A model generated the notes under the pieces. The model had not been told where the DNA came from and ran no database searches. It saw only the letters and a program-made list of their open reading frames with translations. A DNA stretch of 58,268 nt from an uncultured Candidatus Saccharibacteria bacterium (GTDB lineage Bacteria; Patescibacteriota; Minisyncoccia; Minisyncoccales; Staskawiczbacteraceae): contig CAZAAH010000001.1 in assembly GCA_964483475.1 (NCBI GenBank), forward strand, positions 1 through 58,268. The letters run 5' to 3'. The position numbers and the translations under genes were made by a program. Numbering within the stretch: position 1 is the stretch's first letter; each line of letters opens with the position of its first letter. Shown one piece after another: positions 5,973 to 26,553 of the stretch.

Positions 5973-6023
5973 TTCAAAATGCAAAAATCAAAATTCAAAA
6001 TGAAAGTATAAAATTTAAAATGT
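5973..6023. repeat. A-rich quasi-repeat of period about 8-9 nt abutting the topA start
   Basis: The reading is ttcaaaatgcaaaaatcaaaattcaaaatgaaagtataaaatttaaaatgt. Confidence 0.5.
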
Positions 6024-8071: not shown

Positions 8072-8383
8072 CTAGTCATGAATCAGTTGCACCTCAACCA
8101 ACGAGTATTTTGCTGAATTTTGTCCAATAGCTCCTGGAAAGGGCAGCCACGTTCGCCCGATTTTTAACCAACGGCGCCATTGAAGATCACCCTCTCCTTC
8201 AAGATCTTCCTGTTTGAGAAAAATACGGGGTTTCCAATCTGGCCATTCGGCAAACGCAGCTATTCTTGTTTTTTCATTGAAAGAGACCAGATAAAAACTC
8301 ACCGCAGGAAATTTACGAGCAAAGATAGTCTCGGTCAGTTGGTAGCACTTACCGATATCAGATTTTGACAAGGTACAAGGCAT
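8072..8383 (-). CDS. Hypothetical 103-aa protein
   Basis: The ATG follows CGGAGATTACT. It has its own TTGACA-N17-TATACT promoter. No family recognised. Confidence 0.5.
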   Translation of the reverse strand: MPCTLSKSDIGKCYQLTETIFARKFPAVSFYLVSFNEKTRIAAFAEWPDWKPRIFLKQEDLEGEGDLQWRRWLKIGRTWLPFPGAIGQNSAKYSLVEVQLIHD

Positions 8384-8427
8384 AGTAATCTCCGAAAACA
8401 GTTTAAGGGGTTGTGGACGTATATAAA

Positions 8428-8456
8428 AGTATATAAAAAGTTAGCCTTCCTGTCAA
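8428..8456 (-). promoter_or_regulatory. Sigma70-like promoter of the 103-aa ORF
   Basis: On the minus strand, TTGACA (8456-8451) is separated by 17 nt from TATACT (8433-8428). Confidence 0.5.
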
Positions 8457-8541
8457 TTAGACCTAACCTCACCTCCATACGAAACTCTCTACTAGAACGA
8501 AATCTTGAAAAATACCAAAAATGTGATAGCATAATCACATT

Positions 8542-8628
8542 GCCCGGGTGGCGGAATTAGCAGACGCACAGGACTCAAAATCCTGCGATCGCAAGATCAT
8601 GTGGGTGCAACTCCCACCTCGGGCACCA
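8542..8628 (+). tRNA. tRNA-Leu(CAA), CCA encoded
   Basis: The acceptor is GCCCGGG/CTCGGGC. The anticodon stem is CAGGA/TCCTG with loop CTCAAAA. The long variable arm is GATC-GCAA-GATC and the T stem is GTGGG/CCCAC. The T-loop TGCAACT is atypical. Confidence 0.85.
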
Positions 8629-8651
8629 AAGAAATTTTAACCATTAGGCTT

Positions 8652-8960
8652 ATGAAAAAAATATTTGTCGTATTACTGCTTTTAGCCACTATGGTTCCTG
8701 CTTCTGTTTTAGCAACGAATCAATGGCATAGGGCAGCAAGGCATAGCAACTACCCAGTAAGTCGCACGCTAAGCCGTACTCAAAAACAGGATCGCAGCTT
8801 GGGAACAGGATTTTCAAAAAAGCAGGTATGTATTAAGGTAGTCCAGGGCATATTTCCAGGAAAGACGGTGATCAGTTGTTTTGACAGCGATAACGTCCCC
8901 TTCAATAATTTATACTGCCAAACCGACGCACAGGGAAAAATTACCTGTTACGCGCCGTAG
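8652..8960 (+). CDS. Small secreted protein (102 aa, 4 Cys)
   Basis: I use the internal ATG because the track ORF start (8601) lies inside the tRNA. The signal peptide is MKKIFVVLLLLATMVPASVLA. A terminator follows. Confidence 0.6.
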   Translation: MKKIFVVLLLLATMVPASVLATNQWHRAARHSNYPVSRTLSRTQKQDRSLGTGFSKKQVCIKVVQGIFPGKTVISCFDSDNVPFNNLYCQTDAQGKITCYAP

Positions 8961-12684: not shown

Positions 12685-12694
12685 GTCTTTAATG

Positions 12695-12766
12695 TGGACC
12701 CGGCTGGATTCGAACCAACAACCAATCGCGTATAAGGCGAGTGCTCTGCCGTTGAGCTACGGGTCC
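12695..12766 (-). tRNA. tRNA-Ile(TAT) (reads AUA)
   Basis: The minus strand reads GGACCCGTAGCTCAACGGCAGAGC-A-CTCGC-CTTATAC-GCGAT-TGGTT-GTTGG-TTCGAAT-CCAGC-CGGGTCC-A. The anticodon is TAT. Confidence 0.8.
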
Positions 12767-12776
12767 ATAAAGCAGG

Positions 12777-14627
12777 TTACCCTACTTTATTTTTGCTTTT
12801 TATTCCCATCAACTTTTCAAATTCTTCCCTTTCAATCGTCTCTTTTAGAATGAGTTCTTTTGATATTTTAATCAGCAAGGCTTTTCTTTTTGCCACAATC
12901 TCTTTTGCCTTTTTTTCTCCCGCTTTTATAATCTCTTCCACTTCTTTATCAATCTTAGAGGCTACCGACTCCGAATAATTCCTCTGCTCTGAAATTTCCC
13001 TGCCCAAAAACACCAGCTCATCCTTGTCCCCAAAGGCAATCGGCCCAAGCGATGACATGCCATACTCCTTAACAATTCTGCGGGCAAGCTCGGAAGCCCT
13101 TACCAAATCATTGGAGGCTCCTGTTGTCATTTCACCAAAAATCAAGCGCTCGGCGCAATACCCTCCCAGCAACGTAGCAATTTCGGCCATAAATTGGGTT
13201 TTGGTTTTCATTTTGTTTTCTTCAGAAGGAATTTGCAGGGTGTAGCCGCCGGCCATCCCCCGAGAAATAATAGAAATTTTCCTTACCGGCTCGGTTCCCG
13301 GAATTGAACTGGAAACCAAAGCGTGGCCGGCCTCGTGGTAAGCGGCAATTTCTTTTTCTTTTTTGGACAACAAATGGCTCTTCCTTTCTGGTCCAAGCAA
13401 CACTTTTTCAATGGCTTCCAAAAATTCATTTTGGGAAACTTCTTTTTTGTTTCTTCTGGCGGCCAGCAAGGCGGCTTCGTTGGCAACGTTGGCCAGGTCA
13501 GCTCCGGAAAAACCTGGCGTCCGTTCGGCAATTTCTTTAAAGTGGATATTTTGGGCCAGAGGTTTTTCTTTAGAATGGATTTTCAGAATTTCTTCGCGGT
13601 CGTGGACATCGGGAGGATCCAAAACAATTTTCCTATCGAACCGGCCTGGTCTCAAGAGCGCCGGGTCCAAAATATCTCCGCGGTTGGTGGCCGCCATGAC
13701 AATCACCCCGGACTCCCTATCAAAGCCGTCCATCTCCACCAAAATCATGTTGAGGGTTTGCTCCCGTTCGTCGTGGCCTCCGCCAATGCCAGCACCCCTA
13801 TGCCTTCCAATGGCATCTAGCTCGTCAATAAAAATGATTGAAGGCGAAGCTTTTTTAGCCATTGAAAACAAATCGCGAACCCGCGCGCTTCCCACACCAA
13901 CAAACATTTCAACAAATTCAGATCCCGAAATAGAAAAGAATGGCACGTTAGCTTCTCCGGCCACGGCCCTGGCCAACAACGTTTTTCCTACGCCGGCCGG
14001 CCCCAACAACAAAACTCCCCGCGGAATTTTTGCTCCCATTTGTAAATATTTTTGGGGAAATTTTAAAAAGTCAACAATTTCAATCAATTCTTCTTTTGCC
14101 TCTTTTAATCCGGCCACATCCTTAAAAGTTATCTTTTGCTTGCCATGGCCTTCGGCGCCAAAAATCCTAGCTCTTGCCTTGGTAAAATCAAAAACCTGTA
14201 GAGCTCCCGATTTTGCCTGCCTCATCATGGTCCAAAGGAAAAATCCAATGACCACCACCGGCAAAATTCCATAAATCAACGCTGGCAGAAGCCACGACCA
14301 AACATCCTGTTGCTCTGGCTCGGCTTCAATATCTACTTTTTGCAATTTGGTTTTGTCGGCTCCCAAACTTACCAAAAGATCAGGCAACACGGAATTTGAC
14401 TCCTTCATTGATTCGGCCGTTTTGTTGTCTGTGTAGGTGATTTTGACGACGTCGCCCGCTACACTAATTTTTTTAACCTTGTCTTGGTTTAAATCTGTAA
14501 CCAGCTGGGAAAGGGAAATTTGGTTTGGTTTTTCGCCCGACAAATAAAAAAAGCTTAGCAATCCTCCGACCGCAACAAGAATCAAAACGACTGAAATAAA
14601 ATTTTTAAGTAAAGGATTTAGTTTCAT
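12777..14627 (-). CDS. ftsH: ATP-dependent zinc metalloprotease FtsH
   Basis: It has two TM helices, the Walker A motif GPAGVGKT, the SRH region and the HEAGHA zinc site. Confidence 0.97.
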
Positions 14628-14678
14628 AAAATTAAGTTTAAAGCGAAAAATGAAAAGTGTAAAGCTACAACGTAAAAC

Positions 14679-15041
14679 TTAAAACTTTTTGCCTTTTAAT
14701 GTTAAAGTACTTGCTCCAAGCATGTTAGAAAGTTCATGAGTTTCTTGAAGAAGAATATCGGCTCTTTCCTTTTTTGCCTTTTTTGAATCCCTAAGAATTC
14801 CTATCCAAAACTTACTTTCATTAGCCGACTTTAGGGCATAAGCAAAAAACTTTGCGAAATCTTTTTTAGAACTACCGGCCTGGGCCTCTATGATATTAGC
14901 TCCAATACTTGTGGCGCTTCGTAACAATTGGGAACCAATAATTCTACAAGTTTGATCCTTTTCCAGTTCATCAATAAACTTAATAATGTCTAACGCATAA
15001 ATATATGCTCTTTCCTTCAATAATGGTTTTGAGTTTTGCAC
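14679..15041 (-). CDS. Four-helix-bundle protein (23S rRNA IVS / Avd-like family)
   Basis: The 120-aa protein contains QLLRSATSIGANI.EA.....KDF..F...A..SA.ES.FW. The start codon is GTG. Confidence 0.85.
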   Translation of the reverse strand: MQNSKPLLKERAYIYALDIIKFIDELEKDQTCRIIGSQLLRSATSIGANIIEAQAGSSKKDFAKFFAYALKSANESKFWIGILRDSKKAKKERADILLQETHELSNMLGASTLTLKGKKF

Positions 15042-15077
15042 TTTAGTTTTTAGTTTTTAGCTTTTCGCTTTTAGCTT
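15041..15077. repeat. Period-8 quasi-repeat (TTTTTAG-type) abutting the four-helix-bundle gene start
   Basis: The reading is ctttagtttttagtttttagcttttcgcttttagctt. Confidence 0.6.
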
Positions 15078-15123
15078 ATGGTGGTAATCCTACCATTTTT
15101 AAAATTAATTTTCAATTGATTTG

Positions 15124-15172
15124 CAAAAAAAATGGCGTTGGAAGTTTAGTCTTTTGACAAACTTCCAACGCC
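15124..15172 (-). terminator. Intrinsic terminator of the 706-aa gene
   Basis: A 14-bp stem GGCGTTGGAAGTTT / AAACTTCCAACGCC is followed by a T8 run on the minus strand. Confidence 0.85.
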
Positions 15173-15202
15173 CTCAGCGATTTCGGAACTCACCCCGAAG
15201 GA

Positions 15203-17323
15203 TTATTCCGAACTATCACCGTTGTTGGTTGACACTGCGACTGGCGCTACTGACGCCGTCTCTCTTTCTTGGTCAAATCGCACCTGAAGCGATGCCTCTA
15301 CCATTTTGTATGTCTGGTAGAGAGACCCCTCTATCTTGTCGAGCTGAACCAACTTGACCGCCTTTCTATGATCGGTCGCTGATTGATCCAGCTCCAGAGG
15401 AATCTCCTCGCCAATCAACTCTGGAGAGAATTGATGGCTGGAAGTGATGGCCGACAGAAAAAGCTTGCCACCTTCTTCCTTCCGTTCAATGGCGAGAGCT
15501 ACAAACCCCGGTCTTCTCTTTGGTTTTCCCCACAAGAAACGCTCGTGGTAGACTGCCACCGCTCCGACTTTTCCCTCGAACAAAACCTTCGTGAGATCCT
15601 GTTCCTCGGGATCGGAAAGTGTGGCAACGTCCGTGACCGGCTTCAACCGTTCTTCCTGAGCCCTAGACTCATCTGCGGCAGAAACTTCTTGTTTCTCTTT
15701 CTCCGCTTCGCTTTCCTTCAAGCGGCGGAACTCTGCCCCGAGCGCCTTTTTCAGCACAAGAGGCAGTTTAGGCCATTGTTTAGAATCCTCGAATTCTCCG
15801 CAGAGTGGGATTATCTTACCATCTTGGTATTCCCATTTGACCTCAACGCCTTCCATGCCGAGAATCTGGGCCAACTCTTCGTCATCCACCGTTGTCACAG
15901 AAATCATGATTGTCCCATCATCTTTTTGCCTTCTCGACAACTGGACAGTTGACTCCTGTTTGGCGATGTAGGTGCTGACCACCACCCCACCTTCTTCGTG
16001 GTTGTGTCTGAAGCCAGGTGCTATCTTCATGGCGTAGCACCCGACCATTCCCCAGTAGTAGAACTCCCTGGAAGTCATCAGTTCACTTGGGGGCTTAACT
16101 GGCCGCCTTCTTGGCGTACCGTTCGCGGGCGCTTCCTTGGTTTCAGTTCTCCTGCCATCGACGTCCTTGCCGTTTGAAGCCGTAGCACTCTCTTCCTCTT
16201 TCTTTTTCTGGTTTTCTGGCAGAAGGCGGTGGGGCATGGATCGCCCTGCAGCGTTCCTCACCCAACGGGTCATCTTGAACCCGCAGATGAACTCCTTTCC
16301 TTTACCAAAGAGGTACCTACCGTCACTTTCCTCTTTGCAGAGGTTCTCACCATCTTCGGTGAGAATGTGTGAGAGAAGGATGTAGGGTTCTTCACTCTCC
16401 AAATCCCTTCGGAGCTCCTTGAGATCCTCTTCCAGCATCTTCCCGATCACTCCCAAAAAGTAGAGGCGACCTCCAATCCTCCGAAGTTTGATGGCGTTCT
16501 CGTGGGGACCGTGCGTCCAAGAGAGTACCGTAGTCTTCTCGTTGACTTCGCTCTCTTCACAAAAGAACAACTCTTCGTTCGTCACCACGGTGTCATCTGC
16601 AACCATCTCGTTCTTCTTCTGTTCTTTTTCTTTTTCCTGGTTTTCCGCTATCTCTCTTGCCCGAGTATGAGCAGCCTCTGCCAGTTTGATTTTGGCAAAG
16701 TCATGGTATCGGCCGAACACATCCTTATTCAGGTTGTATCCAAGGCCGAAGACCCTGACCAAAGCATTTGCTTTGTTTTGGACTGCAGAGAAAACCTTCT
16801 TTTCCCTTCCGACGCCCTCTGTGGCCGCGTTGATCATCTCGATCAAATCGCTCTTGTCTCGTGCGTGACGGAGTTCAAAAGAAAGTTTTCCGATCTCCGC
16901 ACAGTGACGGACACGCAGACACATTGCCTCAATGAAGGGCCTGCGTCCTTCCGCTTCCGCCTCTACCTGAAGAATGTCGTCCGGGTCGTTCTCGGGACAA
17001 AACTGCCGTAGGTTGTTGATGTTCTCCTCGTGCTCTCTCCTGCTTTCTTCAGAATATTTCGGATCCAACAACACCTCTTCTCCAATCTCAATGACCTCTC
17101 TTTGCATCTCTGTAAAGAAAGTCATCTCTACCGTTGCGATCATGTCGTATGCCATCTCGGCCAGCGTGTTGACATGCTTTGCCAAGTCTACCTTGGCGAG
17201 CAAGCCATCCACGACTTTGGCCGTCCCTTCTGCCTCTCCCTTTTTTTTGAGAAGCAAGACCTTTTTCTTGCTGTTCTGTGGGAGAGTTGCCTTGGGCTTC
17301 TCAATGCACAACTTCTGAGCCAT
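15203..17323 (-). CDS. Orphan 706-aa protein, GC-rich gene
   Basis: The ORF is uninterrupted. The ATG is preceded by AGGAGAAAAAA. It has its own promoter and terminator. I see no catalytic or nucleotide-binding motif. Confidence 0.8.
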   Translation of the reverse strand: MAQKLCIEKPKATLPQNSKKKVLLLKKKGEAEGTAKVVDGLLAKVDLAKHVNTLAEMAYDMIATVEMTFFTEMQREVIEIGEEVLLDPKYSEESRREHEENINNLRQFCPENDPDDILQVEAEAEGRRPFIEAMCLRVRHCAEIGKLSFELRHARDKSDLIEMINAATEGVGREKKVFSAVQNKANALVRVFGLGYNLNKDVFGRYHDFAKIKLAEAAHTRAREIAENQEKEKEQKKNEMVADDTVVTNEELFFCEESEVNEKTTVLSWTHGPHENAIKLRRIGGRLYFLGVIGKMLEEDLKELRRDLESEEPYILLSHILTEDGENLCKEESDGRYLFGKGKEFICGFKMTRWVRNAAGRSMPHRLLPENQKKKEEESATASNGKDVDGRRTETKEAPANGTPRRRPVKPPSELMTSREFYYWGMVGCYAMKIAPGFRHNHEEGGVVVSTYIAKQESTVQLSRRQKDDGTIMISVTTVDDEELAQILGMEGVEVKWEYQDGKIIPLCGEFEDSKQWPKLPLVLKKALGAEFRRLKESEAEKEKQEVSAADESRAQEERLKPVTDVATLSDPEEQDLTKVLFEGKVGAVAVYHERFLWGKPKRRPGFVALAIERKEEGGKLFLSAITSSHQFSPELIGEEIPLELDQSATDHRKAVKLVQLDKIEGSLYQTYKMVEASLQVRFDQERETASVAPVAVSTNNGDSSE

Positions 17324-17415
17324 TTTTTTCTCCTGTCGCCGAGGGCGACGGAAAAATCTATTGTCTCCACAGGCGCGTCAAAAGACGCAAAATTAAATTG
17401 TGAAGAGCTGTTTCT

Positions 17416-17445
17416 TTTATATCACATATTCAATATTATTGTCAA
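17416..17445 (-). promoter_or_regulatory. Sigma70-like promoter (extended -10) of the 706-aa gene
   Basis: On the minus strand, TTGACA (17445-17440) is separated by 18 nt ending in TGA from TATAAA (17421-17416). The leader of about 95 nt has hairpins at 17375-17388 and 17335-17349. Confidence 0.6.
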
Positions 17446-17480
17446 GCATTTTAAGGGTTTTGTAAGTTTTCGAATTTTTA

Positions 17481-17511
17481 AATAAAAAAAGACGAAACTA
17501 TAAATTCCGTC
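17481..17511 (-). terminator. Intrinsic terminator of the NYN-like gene
   Basis: On the minus strand, GACGGAA-TTTATAG-TTTCGTC is followed by TTTTTTTATTT. The hairpin overlaps the stop codon. Confidence 0.7.
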
Positions 17512-18076
17512 ATTTGCTTTTATTGGGTGAAAAGTAATGTATTAATTCTTCGCCTGTTTTGGGGTGTCTGGCCGCAATTTTTATCTGTTGATATACATTT
17601 GAGAAAGATTCTTGGCTTCCTGGAGCAAAAGCAATTTCTATACCCATATTTCTCTTTAATCGCCACAGAAGCGGAGAGTAGTCCAAATCTCCCGCAGCTA
17701 GACAGAAATATCTAGTTTGATCTGCAAAAATTTTTGCTAATTTTTCCGTATGATAGGTAAGATGATTGTCCACATTGTCCGTTAGTTTGCTACCAATACT
17801 AACCTTAGGACAATAAACATACCCAAAAAGAAATTCTTCTTTGTATTCCCCCCATAAGCCATCCCATAATTGATCATTCAAGGATTGATATGTCCTTGAA
17901 GACAAATAAATGTGAGCACAAATTATTTCACTAAAGCCTTTGATCCATTCGAACATATTGTGAAATCCTGCTCGTGTACTGTACCCTTTGAATTCACGAC
18001 CTTCTTGAGCAGAAGATATTAACAAATTATCTAAATCAATTGCGACTATCACACCATTTTCGGTGGTTTTTTCCAT
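17510..18076 (-). CDS. NYN/LabA-like (PIN-type) RNase-domain protein
   Basis: It contains VIVAIDLDNL at the N-terminus, DNVDNHL, and CLAAGDLDYSPLLWRLKRNMGIEIAF. These match the NYN layout D.DN ... D ... sGDsDf.pl...lr..G..v. Confidence 0.6.
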   Translation of the reverse strand: MEKTTENGVIVAIDLDNLLISSAQEGREFKGYSTRAGFHNMFEWIKGFSEIICAHIYLSSRTYQSLNDQLWDGLWGEYKEEFLFGYVYCPKVSIGSKLTDNVDNHLTYHTEKLAKIFADQTRYFCLAAGDLDYSPLLWRLKRNMGIEIAFAPGSQESFSNVYQQIKIAARHPKTGEELIHYFSPNKSK

Positions 18077-18141
18077 TAAATTACCTTTCTTTTGTTAAAA
18101 TGACAAAGTACATTATTTCCTATTTTTATTTCCGTTTTTGT

Positions 18142-18170
18142 ACTTTATAAATATTTTTAAATTTTGTCAA
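18142..18170 (-). promoter_or_regulatory. Sigma70-like promoter of the NYN-like gene
   Basis: On the minus strand, TTGACA (18170-18165) is separated by 17 nt from TAAAGT (18147-18142). The -35 sits in the U-tract of the upstream terminator. Confidence 0.45.
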
Positions 18171-18213
18171 ATAAAAAGAGGCGTTGAGAGAGAACAATTC
18201 TCCCTCAACGCCC
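18168..18213 (-). terminator. Intrinsic terminator of the MYG1-like gene
   Basis: On the minus strand, stem GGCGTTGAGGGAGAA / TTCTCTCTCAACGCC has one G.U pair on that strand and is followed by TCTTTTTATTT. Confidence 0.8.
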
Positions 18214-18231
18214 TTTGCCTCTAACTTTTCG

Positions 18232-19299
18232 TTAGCTAGCCTTTGCTTTTTGCCGAAAACGAATTTCCCGGCAACGAGCAAGTCCGTAGCAGTACCACGG
18301 ACAAGGACTGGCTGCCGTTGAGTTGCACACGCCCCCAAGGCAAGTGCTTTGGCGAGCTGGCTCAAAGGCTTTGGGGTCCAGCCCCGTCTTCACGATTTGG
18401 ACAACCTGCTCCAAATCAAGTCTGGAGCGCGGCGTATCCGGGGCGCTCGTTGATCCGTTGAGAATCATTTGCCCCTCCTCGTGAAAATACCACTCAGGAC
18501 ACCCCGGAACCTTTCCTTCAGATCTCAGAGCGTCCCAATCGGTTGTCGCGACTTTCCCGACCGCCTTCTGTTCCTCAGCTCGCAACATCGCGACAACGTC
18601 ATACATCTTCAGACCAAATCGTTTGGTCGTGAAGATCTGGGTACTGTTGGCCAGAGGATAGTCTCCCGGCGGATGCCTTTGGATGACAACCGCTGCGCCA
18701 CGGTTTCGAGCTGCCTTCGCAAATTCTTCGTTGCTCGAAACTCCGTAGACGAGCATCAGCTCGCACCTTGGCCCCCTGACAATTTCCGTCTGACTACTCT
18801 CCTGGACTTCTTTCTGGGCGACCAAGAATCTTCCTTGCTCTTGGTATTTAGCGTCCAGCGCGTCCATTACCCATTTGATTACCTTCAAAGGCTCATTGGC
18901 CTGGTGAAGTGTCTTCACCAGAGAGGCCAGATCGAAGGGGTGGTTTCCCCCCTTCAAGTCGCCTTGCTCAACGAACCTCAGGATTTGCTGAAGTTGGGGT
19001 TCTTTTTCAATCCCCAAATCCTGTGCCACTAGGGTGGTGGCGCATCCTTCTTTTTTCTGCTCGTTTGGGCCGGGATGTTCGTCGAACCTTCCCCCACCAA
19101 CGCCGATGGCCAGCGTTCCTGCCGCCTCGGCCTCTTCGGGAGAAAATTCCAACAGATCCTCCCCGCCCATTCCGCCCAGCTTCCACTCGGCTTCTTTGAC
19201 GCCGGGATATTTTTCTTTCCCGAAGCGCAAGAGCAGCCACAGGGCCGCAATTTCATCGAGGTGCGGCCTTTCGTGCATCACAACCTCCTGGACAATCAT
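18232..19299 (-). CDS. MYG1/UPF0160-like metal-dependent hydrolase, GC-rich gene, Cys-rich C-terminus
   Basis: It contains VMHERPHLDEIAALWLLLRF, IGVGGGRFDEH and WYFHEEGQMILNG, which parallel the MYG1 motifs H.G.FH.DE, DVGG.YD..HH and F.H..GFIGG. I prefer the ATG at 19299, which has GAGGAGGAAAG upstream. The track start at 19317 is the alternative. Confidence 0.55.
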   Translation of the reverse strand: MIVQEVVMHERPHLDEIAALWLLLRFGKEKYPGVKEAEWKLGGMGGEDLLEFSPEEAEAAGTLAIGVGGGRFDEHPGPNEQKKEGCATTLVAQDLGIEKEPQLQQILRFVEQGDLKGGNHPFDLASLVKTLHQANEPLKVIKWVMDALDAKYQEQGRFLVAQKEVQESSQTEIVRGPRCELMLVYGVSSNEEFAKAARNRGAAVVIQRHPPGDYPLANSTQIFTTKRFGLKMYDVVAMLRAEEQKAVGKVATTDWDALRSEGKVPGCPEWYFHEEGQMILNGSTSAPDTPRSRLDLEQVVQIVKTGLDPKAFEPARQSTCLGGVCNSTAASPCPWYCYGLARCREIRFRQKAKAS

Positions 19300-19379
19300 C
19301 TTTCCTCCTCGGAGCATTGCCCCAAATTGAAGTTTTTTTTAAGAACTGCACCAAGAAGAACGTCTCCTTAGTCCCTTCT

Positions 19380-19408
19380 ATAATATAACATTAGTTATAT
19401 CATGTCAA
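19380..19408 (-). promoter_or_regulatory. Sigma70-like promoter of the MYG1-like gene
   Basis: On the minus strand, TTGACA (19408-19403) is separated by 17 nt from TATTAT (19385-19380). Confidence 0.6.
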
Positions 19409-19420
19409 TAGCCAGCTGTA

Positions 19421-19446
19421 ATAAAAAACGGCGCGAGGCCGTTTTG
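19421..19446 (-). terminator. Intrinsic terminator of rpsA
   Basis: On the minus strand, ACGGC-CTCGC-GCCGT is followed by TTTTTTATT. Confidence 0.75.
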
Positions 19447-19448
19447 AT

Positions 19449-20549
19449 TTACTTTTCTGTGATTAATTTCAAGCTCATTCGATGTTCTTTGGGCTCAATC
19501 AGTAAAATTTTAAATTCGTAGGTTTCGCCAGCCTTCAAAGACTCCTGCATTTGGTTTTGAGAAGCGAATTCAGAAACGTGGCACAAAGCCCGTATCTGGG
19601 GCGAAACTTCCACAAAAGCGCCGAAGGGGTTCAAAGAAATCACTTTGCCTTTTATGGTGTCTCCCTTTTTATATTTTTTTTCAACTTCCTCCCAGGGATT
19701 TTCTTTTAATCTTTTCAAAGAAAGGAATACTTGATTGTTATTTATGTCTATGATTTGAGCTTTGACGTTCTCGAGGACTTTTACAATTTCGTTTGGGTTT
19801 TGAACCAGCTGCCAATCCAATTCCGAAATGTGTATCAAGCCTTCAATTTGGAGTTTTTCATCGGTTTCAGACGAAGGAAATTTTATAAAAGCTCCAAAGT
19901 CGGCGATGCCGGTTATTTTCCCTTCAACAACATCTCCCTTTTTATAATTTTTGAGAATTTCTTTGACTGCTTGTTCTGTTTTTGCCTTTTCAGACAATAT
20001 TAATTTTCCTTCGCCGGCTAACAAGTCAAGGATTTTTACTTCCAATGTTTTGCCGATGAATTTTTGCAATTCTTTTAATATTTTTTGCTTGTCGGCGTCT
20101 TCAACCCTTGGATAATTTTCGCTTGAAAGCTGGGAAACCGGCAAAAATGCAGGCAGACCATCAATGTTGGTTAAAAGCCCGCCTTTGTTAACTCCGGTTA
20201 TTTTAACCGGTATGATTTCTTCTTTTTCTTTCATTTCTCGTATCCTCTGCCAGCCCAACTCTTTGGTTGCGTCTCTCAAGGAAAGCTCAACATAGCCATC
20301 CTCGTTTTCTAACTCAACCACTTTTGCCCTAACGGTATCTCCCTTTTTTAAACTTTTAATTACCTCTTTTACCTCGTAAAATTCTCTGCCGTAAATGATA
20401 CCGGTTCCCTGCGGCCCCAAATCAACAAAAAGAGATGACCTGTCTCTGGCCACCACCTTGCCTTCTACCAAAGATCCAACAGAAAAAGTTTGACCTATAT
20501 CCATCTGGCTCTGGGCTTTATTTTCTTCTTTTACACTAATCATAAGCAT
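19449..20549 (-). CDS. rpsA: 30S ribosomal protein S1 (short, about 4 S1 domains)
   Basis: It shows repeated S1/OB motifs (G..V.G.V......G.FV.L....G..H.SE). Confidence 0.85.
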   Translation of the reverse strand: MLMISVKEENKAQSQMDIGQTFSVGSLVEGKVVARDRSSLFVDLGPQGTGIIYGREFYEVKEVIKSLKKGDTVRAKVVELENEDGYVELSLRDATKELGWQRIREMKEKEEIIPVKITGVNKGGLLTNIDGLPAFLPVSQLSSENYPRVEDADKQKILKELQKFIGKTLEVKILDLLAGEGKLILSEKAKTEQAVKEILKNYKKGDVVEGKITGIADFGAFIKFPSSETDEKLQIEGLIHISELDWQLVQNPNEIVKVLENVKAQIIDINNNQVFLSLKRLKENPWEEVEKKYKKGDTIKGKVISLNPFGAFVEVSPQIRALCHVSEFASQNQMQESLKAGETYEFKILLIEPKEHRMSLKLITEK

Positions 20550-20626
20550 AATGATACAGAATATTATTTTTTTTGCAAGTGTTGAAGATAAAAATTATTT
20601 GTGATAAACTGGAAAAATAAATTGCT

Positions 20627-21283
20627 ATGGCTAAGGTAACTTGGGCCGGACAATCTTGTTTTGAGATTTCGGTTTCAAATTCAAAAGATCACTCGGCCAA
20701 CATTGTCATTGATCCGTTTTCAGATATTGGATTAAAAATGCCCAATTTTGAGGCCGATATTTTACTTGTTTCCCATAGCCACGAAGACCATAATAATATA
20801 AAAGCAGTTAAGGGAGATTATTTTTTGGTTGACGGGCCTGGTGAATACGAAGTCAAAGGAGTTTTTATCCAAGGCATTGATTCTTTTCACGACGACTCTC
20901 AAGGAAAAGAAAGAGGCAAAAATACTATGTATACCATTGAAGCAGAAGGAATGAGGTTTTGCCATTTGGGAGATTTCGGCCAAAAAGAATTAACTGATGA
21001 GCAATTAGAAAAAATTGGGGCGGTTGACATTTTGATGATTCCGGTTGGGGGCGAATATACTATTTCGTCTCACGAGGCCCAAAAAGTTATCGGGCAAATA
21101 GAACCTAAAATAGTAATTCCTATGCACTATGCTTTGCCAAAATTAAAGTTTAAATTGGATGAAGTTGATAAGTTTTTAAAGGCAATGGGCAAAAATTCCA
21201 TTGAACCGCAAGATAAGCTAACCGTTAAAATGAGCAACTTGCCAAAAGAAAAACAGACAGAAATAGTAATTTTAAAACCTTGA
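20627..21283 (+). CDS. MBL-fold metal-dependent hydrolase (UPF0173-like)
   Basis: It has the motif LVSHSHEDHNN. The protein is 218 aa. Confidence 0.8.
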   Translation: MAKVTWAGQSCFEISVSNSKDHSANIVIDPFSDIGLKMPNFEADILLVSHSHEDHNNIKAVKGDYFLVDGPGEYEVKGVFIQGIDSFHDDSQGKERGKNTMYTIEAEGMRFCHLGDFGQKELTDEQLEKIGAVDILMIPVGGEYTISSHEAQKVIGQIEPKIVIPMHYALPKLKFKLDEVDKFLKAMGKNSIEPQDKLTVKMSNLPKEKQTEIVILKP

Positions 21284-25083: not shown

Positions 25084-25422
25084 ATGAATAAAAAATTAAT
25101 TGTTTTGAATTCGCTGGCTGCTTTAATTGCTCTTCCTGTTATTGCATTAGCCGCCGATGTAGGGCCTGTACCCAACGCCGTACCCAGCCTTAACGTTGGA
25201 GAAATCGTCGATATTATCTTTAGCATTCTTTGGCCAATAGCTGTAGCCTTTTTCGTAATAATGTTCGTCATTGCTGGTTTTCTATTTGCAACAGCCCAGG
25301 GAGATCCTGAAAAAGTAAAGCAGGCAAGGAACGCTGTAATTTACGGTGTAGTCGGAGTAATTGTGGCTTTGTTGGCTTGGTCGATTGTCTTTATTATCAG
25401 AAATATGCTTCCAGGCGTTTAA
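25084..25422 (+). CDS. TrbC/VirB2-like small membrane protein, paralog 2
   Basis: It has the signal peptide MNKKLIVLNSLAALIALPVIALA and the loop IAGFLFATAQGDPEKVKQARNA between two TM helices. Confidence 0.6.
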   Translation: MNKKLIVLNSLAALIALPVIALAADVGPVPNAVPSLNVGEIVDIIFSILWPIAVAFFVIMFVIAGFLFATAQGDPEKVKQARNAVIYGVVGVIVALLAWSIVFIIRNMLPGV

Positions 25423-25437
25423 CAAGATTCTTTTATG

Positions 25438-25508
25438 GGGCCTGGTGAATAATGTAATATTTGTGTCTTTCCTTGAAATCCATCGAAAGAACATTATTCA
25501 CCGGGCCC
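25438..25508 (+). other. 18-bp inverted repeat (long hairpin) between pilin paralogs 2 and 3
   Basis: GGGCCTGGTGAATAATGT (25438-25455) pairs with ACATTATTCACCGGGCCC (25491-25508). The single non-Watson-Crick position is a G.U pair only on the plus strand. The loop is 35 nt. Confidence 0.6.
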
Positions 25509-25518
25509 TAACAACAAC

Positions 25519-25854
25519 ATGAATAAAAAATTAATTGTTTTGAATTCGCTGGCTCTTTTGATTGCTCTGCCTGTTTCTGTCTTGGCTTTTAATCCCGGCC
25601 CCATACCAGCCACTAACGCCAGTATTAACGTTAACGATATTATTGACGTAATCTTCAGTATTCTCTGGCCAATCGCCGTTGCCTTCTTTATTATAATGTT
25701 CGTCATAGCTGGTTTTATGTTTGCCACGGCCCAGGGAGATGCAGAAAAAGTGAAGACGGCAAGGAACTTTGTGGTCTATGGCGTAGTTGGAGTAATTGTA
25801 GCTTTACTGGCCTTTTCGATTGTCTTTATTATCAGGAATCAGCTTGGAGTTTAA
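25519..25854 (+). CDS. TrbC/VirB2-like small membrane protein, paralog 3
   Basis: Its first ~36 nt are identical to paralog 2 (38 of the first 40). The loop is IAGFMFATAQGDAEKVKTARNF. Confidence 0.6.
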   Translation: MNKKLIVLNSLALLIALPVSVLAFNPGPIPATNASINVNDIIDVIFSILWPIAVAFFIIMFVIAGFMFATAQGDAEKVKTARNFVVYGVVGVIVALLAFSIVFIIRNQLGV

Positions 25855-25880
25855 TTCGAAGAGTATTTAAAAGATATATA

Positions 25881-26234
25881 ATGAGCAAAAAAACAGTTGT
25901 TCAATTTGTTTTGGTTCTGCTATCAACTTATCCAGTTATTACTCTGGCCCAGGTTGTGTTACCGAGTATACCAGGAGAGTATGGGGGAACTATTGGTGGG
26001 ATAGTAGATGTTGCGGCAGATGTAATCTTGACTGCTGTATGGACCATAGCTGTGACCTTTGTGGTTATAATGTTTGTTCTGGCTGGCTTTAAATACTTAA
26101 CAGCCCAAGGAGATCCAACAAAGGTTTCTGAAGCTCATCGAGCAGTCATATGGGGATTAGCTGGAACGGCTGTTATTGTATTGTCTTGGTCTGTAATATC
26201 AGCAGTTAGACTTCAATTTGGTGGACTTACATAG
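25881..26234 (+). CDS. TrbC/VirB2-like small membrane protein, paralog 4
   Basis: It has a signal peptide and the loop LAGFKYLTAQGDPTKVSEAHRA between two TM helices. Confidence 0.55.
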   Translation: MSKKTVVQFVLVLLSTYPVITLAQVVLPSIPGEYGGTIGGIVDVAADVILTAVWTIAVTFVVIMFVLAGFKYLTAQGDPTKVSEAHRAVIWGLAGTAVIVLSWSVISAVRLQFGGLT

Positions 26235-26250
26235 TAAACGCCAATTTAAA

Positions 26251-26553
26251 ATGAATAAAAAGTCAATTCCATTATTTGTATTAACGTTATTTTTGGTTTT
26301 ACCCTTAATAGCTAATGCAGATATAGATGTTTCAAACATCTTAACTAACATTATCAATGTACTATGGACTATATTTGATGGAATTGTAGTTATAGTATTT
26401 ATTATTGCCGGCATTAAATATTTAACGGCCAGGGGTGATCCAGGGAAAATACAGGAAGCGAATAAGGCTATCATCTGGGGATTGGTTGGAGTAGTGGTTG
26501 GAGTTTTAGCGAATTCTGCGCAAGGTCTTATTAGGAAATTTCTTAATTTGTAA
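26251..26553 (+). CDS. TrbC/VirB2-like small membrane protein, paralog 5
   Basis: I use the internal ATG at 26251 (MNKKSIPLFVL...). The loop is IAGIKYLTARGDPGKIQEANKA. Confidence 0.55.
   Translation: MNKKSIPLFVLTLFLVLPLIANADIDVSNILTNIINVLWTIFDGIVVIVFIIAGIKYLTARGDPGKIQEANKAIIWGLVGVVVGVLANSAQGLIRKFLNL

Follow-up and report, generated by a model that had tools for sequence, protein, structure and literature searches.

The DHH superfamily takes in NrnA, RecJ, and MYG1, the last of which is a DHH-family enzyme (PMC6582341). A 2026 preprint reported that a cultivated member of the phylum Patescibacteria takes up host RNA, lives on its cleavage, and has a codon usage that complements its host's (10.64898/2026.06.21.733656), which makes an RNase-rich physiology plausible. 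We analyzed a stretch of 58,268 nucleotides (the window) in which the first-pass annotation had placed, between rpsA and ftsH, a horizontally acquired island made up of a 706-aa orphan (here gene X), an NYN RNase-like gene, and a gene for a MYG1/UPF0160-like hydrolase, seen as a candidate defence module. Our reading is a different one. The core of the locus would be a gene pair, namely a stand-alone NYN/PIN-type endoribonuclease and the adjacent X, and, taken as a whole, we consider it on balance probable that this pair is lineage-specific, is vertically maintained in a clade of the ultra-small Patescibacteria (CPR) rather than recently imported, and has X under control at the RNA level. The features of the locus are collected in Table 1.

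Table 1. Positions of genes and predicted expression signals at the locus, in window coordinates
Feature	Position	Strand	Evidence
X terminator hairpin, GGCGUUGGAAGUUU...AAACUUCCAACGCC + U-run	15134..15172	-	inverted-repeat search
Gene X, 706 aa	15203..17323	-	family searches, adjacency, composition, folding, coding signature, extension
Structured 5' leader of X mRNA, ~90 nt	17324..17411	-	common fold, covariation, covariance model, z-scores
X promoter, TTGACA-N18-TATAAA, TGn extended -10	17416..17445	-	read directly in sequence
NYN terminator hairpin, GACGGAA...UUUCGUC + U-run	17491..17511	-	terminator scan
Predicted NYN-domain (PIN-like) RNase gene, 188 aa, AT-rich	17510..18076	-	PF01936 22.6 bits, E 1.7e-4; invariant acidic residues
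NYN promoter, TTGACA-N17-TAAAGT	18142..18170	-	promoter scan, 10/12 matches
DHH-like gene terminator hairpin, stem starting GGGCGUUG, then U-run	18179..18213	-	terminator scan, 16 pairs
Predicted DHH-superfamily-like phosphoesterase gene, 355 aa, GC 0.55	18232..19299	-	family alignment, AlphaFold model, Foldseek
Sigma-70-like promoter of DHH-like gene, TTGACA-N17-TATTAT	19380..19408	-	promoter scan, 11/12 matches

Composition and synteny of the locus

X and the DHH-like ORF were indeed the two most G+C-rich of approximately 57 ORFs in the window, as had been noticed by eye. The GC content was 0.511 for X (GC3 0.597) and 0.552 for the DHH-like ORF when read from 19317 (GC3 0.608), the window mean being 0.403. 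The NYN ORF between them (GC 0.362, GC3 0.291) was AT-rich like the rest of the genome, in keeping with the host-like composition first ascribed to it, and the abrupt changes at approximately 15.1 kb and 19.3–19.4 kb were visible in a sliding GC profile. The flanks, initially put at about one third G+C, did not fit that figure (ftsH 0.447, rpsA 0.390, and a 120-aa gene 0.344), and fairly G+C-rich genes were also found at 6024–8057 (0.470), 31779–33308 (0.472), and 51851–53845 (0.497). X and the DHH-like ORF are the upper end of a heterogeneous GC spread and not lone outliers.

The 188-aa protein is predicted to be an NYN-type RNase, as the first-pass annotation had it: 17 of 18 family members matched NYN (PF01936) at E <= 0.01, with the window protein slightly below the cut-off of 24.2 bits, and the acidic catalytic residues were invariant in the family (D14, D16, N17, D100, D103, and D130 invariant, D132 nearly so). 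The question whether X homologs co-localize with NYN genes received a clear answer, as the two genes lay side by side wherever the locus was long enough for this to be seen, in about 17 independent related loci. The pair was located nearly always between rpsA and ftsH, usually in the order rpsA, (slot), NYN, X, ftsH, and many related genomes shared the longer series gyrA, Lactamase_B3, rpsA, (variable slot), NYN, X, ftsH in synteny; depending on the genome, h205, the DHH-like gene, or nothing filled the slot that separates rpsA from NYN. Adjacency was kept in L017, where NYN and X are divergent, and in L001 the NYN gene had decayed and its terminator and X were retained. In L012, a more distant, G+C-rich relative, ftsH directly follows rpsA, suggesting that the NYN–X pair was inserted once, in an ancestor. 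An extra small gene lies between X and ftsH in the window.

The start of X at 17323 is backed by AGGAGA-N6-ATG, and differences at codon positions 1, 2, and 3 numbered 68, 46, and 166, so that coding is real. The orphan label given to X holds in that no annotated relatives were found in Pfam, NCBIfam, PADLOC, PHROGs, or PDB, but X is a member of a small, fast-evolving, CPR-restricted family with a usual length of 520–560 aa, residues 545–706 being an extension seen in this genome only. The pairwise identity of X proteins across loci was 25–59%, versus 68–87% for ftsH. The predicted structure was poor (pLDDT 52), and no structural match was found; in the model, the N-terminal half is helical, and there are two small beta-sheet domains and a disordered linker of basic character. 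We propose that X is a fast-evolving cytoplasmic protein.

In all loci X had a GC of 0.48–0.60 and a GC3 of 0.45–0.79, with both G3 and C3 elevated, and its neighbours had a GC3 of 0.19–0.47. Since X is G+C-rich everywhere despite its deep divergence, we take recent horizontal transfer to be ruled out and the composition to be maintained. A recent arrival from a G+C-richer donor, with the NYN RNase, the MYG1-like hydrolase, and the orphan acting as an RNA-targeting defence module, would fit the sharp boundaries of the two most G+C-rich ORFs, the fast evolution of X (as is often the case for defence genes), the varying slot, and the extra small gene. Against it stand a gene order common to about 17 related loci in a fixed housekeeping neighbourhood, the absence of an integrase, flanking repeat, or tRNA junction at the locus, and the absence of PADLOC or PHROGs matches for any of the genes; moreover, the three genes form no single unit. 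Largely refuted by the synteny, this origin and role strike us as highly improbable.

The DHH-like gene in the variable slot

The ORF of the 355-aa protein is open from 19317 (361 aa), with the start at 19299 backed by GAGGAGG-N4-ATG. Its family comprises approximately 100 CPR clusters and shares the invariant motifs H-x3-H-x-DE and GGG-x-F-DEH as well as a C-terminal Cys cluster; the Cys-rich tail is thus conserved family-wide and not the extra element it had been called. The AlphaFold model (pLDDT 95) matched PPX1 (Foldseek probability 0.98), family II pyrophosphatase, and RecJ, which suggests a DHH-phosphoesterase fold of the superfamily containing MYG1. This much of the MYG1/UPF0160 assignment stands. 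The identity itself failed every sequence test, as none of 60 family members matched PF03690 or PF01368 and a profile comparison with a validated MYG1 sequence gave a probability of 0.3.

The DHH-like gene was missing from most NYN–X loci and occurred in unrelated contexts elsewhere, and its G+C-richness was not family-wide, being absent in L034, L035, and L004. We propose that it is a separate, widespread CPR gene that here occupies the slot between rpsA and NYN; transfer from a G+C-richer CPR relative is possible. The fallback of the first-pass annotation, in which two GC-rich insertions flank a native NYN gene, came closer but does not fit X, which is as native as NYN and tied to it.

A pathway of RNA salvage or turnover might also be envisaged, in which the NYN RNase cuts, the DHH-like enzyme degrades short oligonucleotides like nanoRNases, X serves as a scaffold, and the nucleotide-level oddities are incidental. 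The NYN active site is intact, judging from its residues, and the DHH fold is that of NrnA, RecJ, and MYG1 (PMC6582341). In the window and L013 alike, the DHH-like gene has the NYN gene as its neighbour, and the same holds for a distant homolog in L004; two RNase H-like genes come after the DHH-like gene in L012; and rpsA encodes the RNA-binding protein S1. The phylum relies on RNA cleavage for nucleotides, but the preprint credits this use of RNA to PNPase and kinases rather than to the genes studied here (10.64898/2026.06.21.733656). With the DHH-like gene absent from most NYN–X loci, most of its homologs far from any NYN gene or X, and an exopolyphosphatase, PPX1, as the best structural match, we find such a pathway rather unlikely.

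Expression signals of the X transcript

The three promoters and three terminator hairpins of the first-pass annotation were found where it had placed them, each gene having its own promoter and terminator. The position of the X promoter was conserved in orthologous loci, as was the GACGGAA...UUCCGUC form of the NYN terminator. The X terminator has perfect 14-nt arms (GGCGTTGGAAGTTT / AAACTTCCAACGCC), and its stem base, GGCGYUG / CARCGCC, was kept after most X orthologs read, the remainder being one-base variants. Two stems had been seen to start with GGCGTTG, and within the window the GGCGTTG...CAACGCC hairpin occurred only there, after X and after the DHH-like gene. Across the loci, GGCGYTG...CARCGCC hairpins were confined to the ends of X genes, that of the remote L013 homolog among them, and of the window's DHH-like gene.

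The same three helices were found in all 14 X leaders folded. Within P1 (CUUCACA / UGUGRAG) lie the single-stranded AAUUUAAU and hairpin P2, and a linker leads to hairpin P3, whose 3' arm contains the Shine-Dalgarno GGAG. P2 was 97.7% canonical, with double-sided changes at six of seven positions, and the inner part of P3 was 100% canonical, with such changes at five of six; P1 and the anti-SD:SD pairs were invariant and hence uninformative for covariation. When 19 leaders were aligned with the model, 88.9% of cells paired versus 81.4% in shuffles (none of 500 reached 88.9%), 11 pairs had double-sided changes, and slid controls did not exceed 58% pairing. Across 239 kb, the covariance model matched once at each X locus (in the window 17321–17411, 94.6 bits) and nowhere else, and folding z-scores were −3.3 to −5.8. 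No Rfam match was found. The X leader appears to be a previously undescribed structured element, predicted to hide the ribosome-binding site. The analysis brought up no conserved alternative (ON-state) pairing; the leader may be a constitutive stabilizer or attenuator instead of a switch.

Folding, composition, and control of X

The X coding region folded more strongly than dinucleotide shuffles, the stricter control, in 12 of 12 orthologs (mean z −0.7 to −3.05) and, with synonymous codons shuffled, had a z below −0.5 in 13 of 14, the remote L013 homolog giving −0.11. The controls (ftsH, rpsA, gyrA, and three other G+C-rich window genes) ranged from −0.63 to +0.56, and 15–19.8 kb was the sole long strongly negative stretch of the window, which otherwise showed short dips. 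The excess was about equally strong on the antisense strand of X and is therefore not assignable to mRNA rather than DNA.

From the synteny, conserved composition, leader structure, terminator conservation, and excess folding we infer the following. X would be transcribed alone from its strong sigma-70-type promoter, and the P1/P2 domain would begin near the likely 5' end of the mRNA, a few nucleotides away. In P3, YUCC would pair with GGAG of the ribosome-binding site, so that translation is off by default until a trigger opens or removes the hairpin; candidate triggers are a ligand or protein binding at P1/P2 and cleavage by the NYN RNase encoded next to X. A coding region whose synonymous sites are kept G+C-rich and whose self-complementarity exceeds chance, and the long terminator hairpin with its conserved GGCGUUG stem base, would give an mRNA with RNA-level selection on its composition and folding, the simplest reason being a long life amid high RNase activity. 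The X protein may cooperate with this RNase, perhaps as an RNA-binding or regulatory partner. Our best guess is that X is an RNase partner, a role suggested by adjacency, under tight post-transcriptional control.

The possibility exists that X and the variable-slot genes form a recombination hotspot, in which related strains swap alleles through conserved flanks, GC-biased gene conversion raises GC3, and neither leader nor terminator is more than an ordinary expression signal. X identity followed NYN identity (rho 0.52), its correlation with ftsH identity was not significant (rho 0.28), and X similarity was incongruent with that of ftsH and rpsA. L027 had different partners in the X and ftsH groupings, its identity to L022–24 being 0.53–0.57 for X and 0.77–0.78 for ftsH, and to L008 0.39 and 0.87. 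The fast evolution of X, a GC3 gap of 0.10 between the close L023 and L024, and the strongly conserved NYN terminator, promoter, leader, and GGCGTTG hairpin as potential homology arms also fit. GC-biased conversion in bacteria is usually credited with a shift of a few percent, far below the GC3 excess of X over background (0.2–0.5). It does not predict covarying leader helices or folding beyond composition- and codon-matched shuffles, and the NYN gene is AT-rich though flanked by two G+C-rich genes. Relatives may have exchanged X alleles, with GC-biased conversion at work; as an account of the locus, a hotspot seems to us unlikely. Even in the closest X pair, 31% of codons for identical residues differed, showing that synonymous sites turn over while GC3 stays high.

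Codon usage itself could instead be the means of control, X being written in codons rare for an AT-rich genome and translated slowly or only with abundant matching tRNAs; in the strongest form, X would be made only after uptake of host tRNA or RNA, as a host-contact-dependent protein. The general preference for codons ending in G or C, seen also in AAG, GAG, and CAG over AAA, GAA, and CAA, is unusual for highly expressed genes of AT-rich bacteria, the predicted sequestration of the SD suggests tight translational control, and the RNA uptake and host-complementary codons of the cultivated Patescibacterium (10.64898/2026.06.21.733656) count in its favor. However, the window carries genes for tRNAs (Leu-GAG, Leu-CAA, Val-GAC, Gly-GCC, and Arg-CCU) that read codons ending in C and some ending in G, and codon choice alone does not account for folding beyond synonymous-codon shuffles; we consider this explanation improbable.

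Elsewhere in the window, three of the short dips to negative z-scores corresponded to tRNA clusters.

The NYN–X pair and its neighbourhood

The NYN gene and X, the 706-aa gene next to it, form a conserved pair with separate transcription signals. X is a fold-rich ORF whose high G+C content is maintained, and it is preceded by a leader with covarying helices, in which the ribosome-binding site is hidden, and followed by a 3′ hairpin that is likewise conserved. The positions of these features, and of others mentioned below, are collected in the table.

Positions, composition and basis of the features discussed
Feature	Position	Strand	GC	GC3	Remarks
G+C-rich gene	6024–8057		0.47–0.50	0.56–0.60	GC and GC3 are ranges for the three genes so named
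tRNA-Ile, anticodon UAU	12694–12766	−			ARAGORN; just downstream of ftsH
120-aa protein gene	14679–15041	−	0.34		between X and ftsH; own promoter-like site
X terminator	15172–15134				from sequence and inverted-repeat list
X	15203–17323	−	0.511	0.597	706 aa; start at 17323 supported by Shine-Dalgarno sequence
X leader	17324–17411	−			helices P1, P2, P3
X promoter	17445–17416				TTGACA-N18-TATAAA, read off the sequence
NYN terminator	17511–17491				consensus scan
NYN ORF	17510–18076	−	0.362	0.291	188 aa
NYN promoter	18170–18142				consensus scan
Terminator after DHH-like gene	18213–18179				consensus scan
DHH-like gene	18232–19299	−			355 aa; start at 19299 supported by Shine-Dalgarno sequence
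DHH-like ORF	18232–19317	−	0.552	0.608	
Promoter of DHH-like gene	19408–19380				consensus scan
Tandem array of small genes	25084–26553	+			four or five genes
G+C-rich gene	31779–33308		0.47–0.50	0.56–0.60	
G+C-rich gene	51851–53845		0.47–0.50	0.56–0.60	

The first-pass annotation had described X and the DHH-like gene as two G+C-rich ORFs, each gene of the locus having its own promoter, Shine-Dalgarno sequence and hairpin terminator. The computation bore this out: the two ORFs have the highest GC values among about 57 ORFs in a window of overall GC 0.403, the NYN ORF between them has a much lower value, the abrupt steps at about 15.1 kb and 19.3–19.4 kb are visible in the sliding GC profile, and all the signals were recovered. 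Only the estimate of roughly one third G+C for the flanks has to be revised, as the computed values are 0.34–0.45. Three further genes of the window reach a GC of 0.47–0.50, and the genome is therefore compositionally mixed; these genes may be ordinary acquired or compositionally distinct genes, and their folding z-scores (−0.6 to +0.2) show no excess, unlike X. That the composition stems from overlapping genes on the antisense strand was considered and rejected, since the ORFs there are short (≤189 aa) and of a kind to be expected in G+C-rich DNA.

Loci for comparison (numbered with L) were taken from contigs carrying homologs of X, NYN or the DHH-like protein and from a metagenome scan with the NYN alignment, and were annotated with custom HMMs. 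The results showed that the NYN gene and X stand side by side in every locus that is long enough, about 17 independent loci after the removal of duplicates. The NYN–X pair is therefore a conserved lineage-specific module. The usual order, which is also that of the window, is gyrA, a Lactamase_B3 gene, rpsA, a variable slot, NYN, X and ftsH. The slot is either empty or holds a member of an unannotated family (h205) or the DHH-like gene, the latter in the window and L013 and, as a distant homolog, in L004. In L017 the two genes are divergent yet adjacent; in L001 only 13 residues of NYN remain, with the terminator of the gene, and X is retained; in L013 a remote X homolog occupies the same place (hhalign probability 95.8). 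In L012, from a G+C-rich Brennerbacteria genome, rpsA is directly followed by ftsH, and the DHH-like gene lies two genes downstream. Thus, the expected co-localisation holds for X and NYN, but the DHH-like gene is only loosely associated with them and elsewhere occurs in unrelated contexts. A rival explanation of the locus is a plain RNA-salvage pathway that would include the DHH-like enzyme.

Some other genes in these regions are recorded here. The h205 family, of about 205 aa, is encoded on the opposite strand, has no Pfam match and is often G+C-rich (GC 0.39–0.54); it lies between rpsA and the NYN gene in L001, L005, L008, L018–L020, L024 and L027, and downstream of the NYN gene in L017. 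The 120-aa protein encoded between X and ftsH is a four-helix-bundle protein of the 23S rRNA intervening-sequence protein family (PF05635, 75.6 bits; TIGR02436, 89 bits). None of the related loci has a gene at this position, and it looks like a small recent insertion. In the distant relative L031, the place of X behind a divergent NYN-like gene is taken by a G+C-rich ORF of 494 aa (6000–7484; GC3 0.66 against 0.19 in the flanks). No similarity to X could be detected in it, its C-terminal third resembles out-of-frame sequence, and it may be a frameshifted or an unrelated occupant of the slot. The 3.4-kb contig CAYJLN010000059.1 (L001/L014) is filed under a 'Candidatus Woesearchaeota archaeon' MAG and carries a bacterial rpsA, h205 and X in the synteny of CPR genomes, suggesting that it was probably mis-binned. 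L004 has a LAGLIDADG-type homing-endonuclease-like gene (8246–8920) downstream of the gene for ribosomal protein L19.

The 188-aa protein had been assigned to the NYN family by eye, and we accept it as a predicted NYN-type RNase. Its own score against Pfam NYN (PF01936; 22.6 bits, E 1.7e-4) lies just below the curated cut-off of 24.2, with residues 9–158 aligned to profile positions 2–134 of 145, so that nearly the whole protein is covered. The window protein included, 17 of the 18 family members match PF01936 at E ≤ 0.01 (best 3.5e-8), and 11 of the 18 carry a precomputed PF01936 annotation. Among 5.8 billion proteins we found 17 relatives at 48–63% identity, the subfamily thus comprising 18 clusters at 90% identity. 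The acidic active-site residues of the PIN-like fold, D14, D16, N17, D100, D103 and D130, are invariant in the 18 sequences, and D132 is nearly so. The protein shares domain PF01936 with the NYN (LabA-like, PIN-fold) RNases, such as Bacillus Rae1/YacP, eukaryotic MARF1 and the Regnase-type enzymes, and has the acidic residues in the usual places (DxDN at the first strand, DxxD and GDxD). Many NYN proteins bear OST-HTH/LOTUS or similar domains, whereas the window protein consists of the catalytic domain alone, without a fused RNA-binding module. The subfamily is further distinguished from known NYN RNases by its small size and by being always encoded beside X. A PIN-type toxin–antitoxin pair, in which a small antitoxin gene would be co-transcribed, was considered and rejected, since NYN is served by a promoter and a terminator of its own and its conserved neighbour is a separately transcribed gene for a protein of 520–706 aa.

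X had been called an orphan, but it is one of a small family that is restricted to the clade and linked to the NYN gene. A word-based search found three relatives, and 32 were returned at E ≤ 1e-30 when 1.84 billion representatives were searched exhaustively with a profile, the full-length members being nearly all of 520–560 aa. A 5384-aa repeat protein (P0155), matched over 14 stretches in the same search, was judged to be a repeat or low-complexity artefact. X had no match in Pfam, NCBIfam, PADLOC, PHROGs or the PDB sequence set, and a Pfam scan of all 25 aligned family members gave scattered single matches only. In the alignment, a variable N-terminus, often with L-x-G-G-L, is followed by a helical region, two beta-rich segments and a basic low-complexity linker. 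The structure model, built from four sequences, was poor (pLDDT 52) and confident for the two beta segments only; a Foldseek search with it against PDB and viral models gave nothing below E 0.04. Residues 545–706 are an extension seen in the window genome only, equally G+C-rich and with no detectable similarity to the remainder of X. A reading of X as three copies of one beta domain, the third being this tail, found no support (hhalign E 0.05–0.25; nothing by BLASTP).

Maintained composition and horizontal transfer

The first-pass annotation had interpreted the locus as a foreign island with a candidate defence module, and the segment with X and the DHH-like gene does have the atypical composition, relative to the genome, by which islands are recognised. 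As in ameliorating genomic islands described by the Lawrence–Ochman model, the boundaries are sharp and GC3 and codon usage deviate. Unlike such islands, X shares its deviation with orthologs in many genomes at saturated synonymous divergence, no amelioration is seen, and the locus is syntenic and devoid of mobility genes. Neither an integrase nor a transposase was found in the ORF list of the window, flanking direct repeats or a tRNA junction were not found at the locus, and X, NYN, the DHH-like protein and the adjoining 120-aa protein had no PADLOC match at E ≤ 1. Thus, with synteny in about 17 related loci and a composition shared by the X orthologs, the interpretation as a foreign defence island finds no support.

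The comparison of orthologs carries this argument. In every locus X has a GC of 0.48–0.60 and a GC3 of 0.45–0.79, against a GC3 of 0.19–0.47 for rpsA, ftsH, gyrA and NYN of the same loci; the extreme is L030, with 0.79 for X and 0.30 for ftsH. GC3 is high over the full length of X, and G-ending and C-ending codons are both raised, including AAG, GAG and CAG. The X proteins are 25–59% identical where ftsH is 68–87% identical. Even in the closest pair (L023 and L024, 82% identity), 31% of the codons for identical residues differ, and the differences at codon positions 1, 2 and 3 number 68, 46 and 166, a pattern showing that X is truly coding and that its synonymous sites turn over freely. A drifting import would approach the AT-rich background, yet no X ortholog has done so, and the composition is therefore maintained; its conservation across orthologs also argues against a recent transfer. 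For the DHH-like gene the same argument fails, since this gene is G+C-rich in the window, L013 and L011 but not in L034, L035 and L004.

Two other explanations concern the composition of X. One is the exchange of X alleles between relatives together with GC-biased conversion, for which there is a hint in L027, where the similarity of X is incongruent with that of ftsH. The other is rare-codon control of X. For island-detection methods the case of X is a caution: a G+C-rich patch with sharp edges can stand in an AT-rich genome without recent horizontal transfer. That such a deviation is inherited, or maintained, in deeply diverged orthologs poses a separate question.

Structured leader, terminators and folding of the X coding region

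When the NYN–X intergenic regions were compared, a conserved promoter was seen to be followed by a leader of about 90 nt, which always lies between this promoter and the start codon of X. In helix P1, CUUCACA pairs with UGUGRAG and encloses the invariant single-stranded AAUUUAAU and the variable hairpin P2. A U-rich linker then leads to hairpin P3; here, in 14 of 14 leaders, the GGAG of the ribosome-binding site is paired with YUCC. Single-sequence folding gave the same shape for all 14. In the helices parsed from these folds, 97.7% of the pairs of P2 and 100% of those of inner P3 are canonical, with double-sided changes at 6/7 and 5/6 positions, respectively, and swapping arms between leader sequences lowers pairing to 63% (P2) and 74% (inner P3). 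The pairs of P1 and between anti-SD and SD are invariant and therefore carry no covariation information. Folding z-scores of eight leaders ranged from −3.3 to −5.8, and a conserved alternative pairing was not found in the leader.

RNAalifold on a plain MAFFT alignment recovered P1 only, because the variable hairpins are out of register; the helices were instead obtained by separate folding, hand-parsing and a covariance model. This model gave 19 matches, exactly one per X locus, including the diverged L016, L025, L026 and L028, and no further match in 239 kb including the rest of the window. In the alignment fitted to the model, 88.9% of the cells pair against 81.4% in shuffles (0/500 reach 88.9%), double-sided changes occur in 11 pairs (1/500 shuffles), and slid controls pair at ≤58%. 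Since such an alignment leans towards its own structure, we place more weight on the independent single-sequence folds. A search of Rfam 15 found nothing overlapping the leader in 14500–20700 at E ≤ 5, and the whole window gave only tRNAs at the gathering score.

Like Shine-Dalgarno-sequestering translational riboswitches, protein-binding leaders and the ompA/aprE stabilisers, the X leader has a 5′-proximal helix. Its small conserved two-helix domain with an invariant single-stranded segment, the covarying hairpin on GGAG and the constant position upstream of one gene family are likewise features shared with these RNAs. Unlike known leaders, it has no match in Rfam 15 and is accompanied by a conserved 3′ hairpin and a structured ORF. 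The leader RNA is previously undescribed, and its covarying structure, constant position and expression platform make it a candidate for a structured cis-regulatory element.

The base of the X terminator stem is GGCGYUG / CARCGCC in most of the X loci read, with one-base variants in the rest, including the remote homolog of L013. In all the DNA compared, the strict X-type hairpin is confined to the 3′ side of X and, in the window, of the DHH-like gene, which accounts for the earlier observation, correct in itself, that two stems start with the same heptamer. By eye, GGCGTTG...CAACGCC hairpins were also considered as integron attC-like ends and rejected, since their core-like motifs run in the reverse order of those in attC and an integrase is lacking. 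The NYN terminator (GACGGAA...UUCCGUC) is conserved at almost every base across loci whose ftsH identity is 68–87%, and it is kept in L001 despite the decay of the NYN gene, suggesting a conservation beyond the needs of a generic terminator.

Folding of the coding region was scored in 120-nt windows against synonymous-codon and dinucleotide-preserving shuffles. The mean z of X was −0.5 to −2.1 against the former in 13 of 14 orthologs (−0.11 in the remote L013 homolog) and −0.7 to −3.05 against the latter in 12/12 orthologs. The controls (ftsH, rpsA, gyrA and three other G+C-rich window genes) gave −0.63 to +0.56; the DHH-like gene was at about −2 in the window and L011 and weaker elsewhere. 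In a scan of the whole window, 15–19.8 kb was the sole long stretch of strongly negative z. The other dips were short, and three of them (near 9.6–10.1, 26.6 and 46.1–46.6 kb) fall on tRNA clusters, which served as a positive control. Since the antisense strand of X scores about as low as the sense strand, the property is one of local self-complementarity and is not assignable to the mRNA by computation. X resembles the genome-scale ordered RNA structure of RNA viruses in folding beyond composition-matched controls over kilobases, and the G+C-rich structured non-coding RNAs of AT-rich bacteria in being a G+C-rich patch in an AT-rich genome. It differs from both in being a chromosomal protein-coding gene with a codon-position substitution pattern and in a signal that is not strand-specific.

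As to how the module might work, we infer that translation of X would be repressed by default and released by a factor acting on the leader. The X mRNA may be adapted to persistence or recognition in a cell rich in RNases, and X may act with the NYN RNase, itself lacking an RNA-binding module. According to a 2026 preprint, host RNA is taken up by a cultivated member of the phylum, which lives on cleaving it and has a codon usage complementary to that of the host; NYN, X and DHH-like genes are not mentioned there (10.64898/2026.06.21.733656). Such a lifestyle makes strong RNase pressure, and a need to distinguish own transcripts, plausible. The possibility exists, which we hold to be rather improbable, that the nucleotide sequence of X has long been selected as RNA throughout a clade of ultra-small, AT-rich bacteria that scavenge RNA, as a G+C-rich, densely folded message capped by the 5′ leader and the 3′ hairpin. 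In that event, the mRNA would survive, or be specifically recognised by, the cell's own RNases, including the adjoining NYN enzyme. This would amount to a built-in distinction between self and substrate RNA, or to a host-contact-dependent translation switch, and in the leader one would have a new regulatory RNA class, specific to the NYN–X module. If composition and folding protect or mark the X mRNA, X would offer a testable example of how own transcripts are told from consumed RNA.

What is new is the leader RNA and the long-maintained anomaly in composition and folding of a protein-coding gene. NYN–X adds a conserved pair of an RNase and its putative partner, with a new candidate regulatory RNA, to the Patescibacteria, a very large lineage with almost no experimentally characterised gene regulation, for which dependence on the cleavage of host RNA has recently been proposed in a preprint.

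The DHH-like protein and other features of the window

The DHH-like protein, encoded in the variable slot of the window, had been taken for a MYG1/UPF0160 hydrolase. MYG1 is a DHH-family 3′–5′ RNA exonuclease with a catalytic D-H-H motif (PMC6582341). By fold, the assignment to the DHH superfamily stands, but membership of the MYG1 family failed all sequence tests. The AlphaFold model from 60 sequences (pLDDT 95.1) matched yeast exopolyphosphatase PPX1 (2qb6; E 4.7e-5, probability 0.98), family II pyrophosphatase (1k23; E 9.4e-4) and RecJ (5x4j and 2zxr) in a Foldseek search of the PDB, the significant matches being DHH-superfamily enzymes only. The global TM-scores of these matches are low, at about 0.2, as a different orientation of the two domains would lead one to expect. 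The two-domain fold of the model thus places the protein, by prediction, in the DHH phosphoesterase superfamily.

The results at the sequence level were negative. Pfam MYG1 (PF03690) had no match to the window protein at E ≤ 1 and matched 0 of 60 family members; the model is sensitive, as a MYG1 sequence validated on Pfam scored 458.7 bits. Pfam DHH (PF01368) likewise matched 0/60, and a search of PDB sequences with the family profile gave no match. In a weak test, hhalign of the 60-sequence profile against this single MYG1 sequence gave a probability of 0.3 and E 0.2, with the wrong regions aligned.

The family comprises about 100 clusters, those with names being from Patescibacteria and labelled hypothetical. 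H15, H19, G72, G74, D79, E80, H81, D120, R246, N287 and G288 are invariant, D21 and E22 nearly so, and a C-terminal cluster of four Cys is conserved. As in the DHH superfamily (RecJ, NrnA, family II pyrophosphatase and yeast PPX1), a two-domain fold is combined with an N-terminal His/Asp/Glu motif. The catalytic D-H-H of MYG1 (PMC6582341) is absent from the family, which has the invariant D79-E80-H81 instead: the Gly-rich motif ends in D-E-H where DHH enzymes have D-H-H, the middle His being replaced by Glu. In the C-terminal domain, NGS stands where MYG1 and DHHA1 have a GGH-type motif, and the four-Cys tail also differs from MYG1 and DHH enzymes. The roughly 100 clusters, hitherto annotated throughout as hypothetical, can now be linked to a fold and to residues that are candidates for catalysis. 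Pfam ChrB_C gave a short, weak match in 33/60 members, over the N-terminal H-x3-H-x-DE motif only. One homolog of 364 aa (P0010) bears the JGI name "DNA gyrase/topoisomerase IV subunit A", which fits neither its length nor its family and is probably an annotation error.

Two further features of the window were observed. The small genes of the tandem array have similar signal-peptide-like N-termini (MNKKLIVLNSLA...), and their syntenic counterparts in L008 match PF18895 (T4SS_pilin), a domain typical of CPR genomes. In most bacteria, AUA codons are decoded by a CAU tRNA modified with lysidine; the tRNA-Ile with anticodon UAU would be a minority solution.
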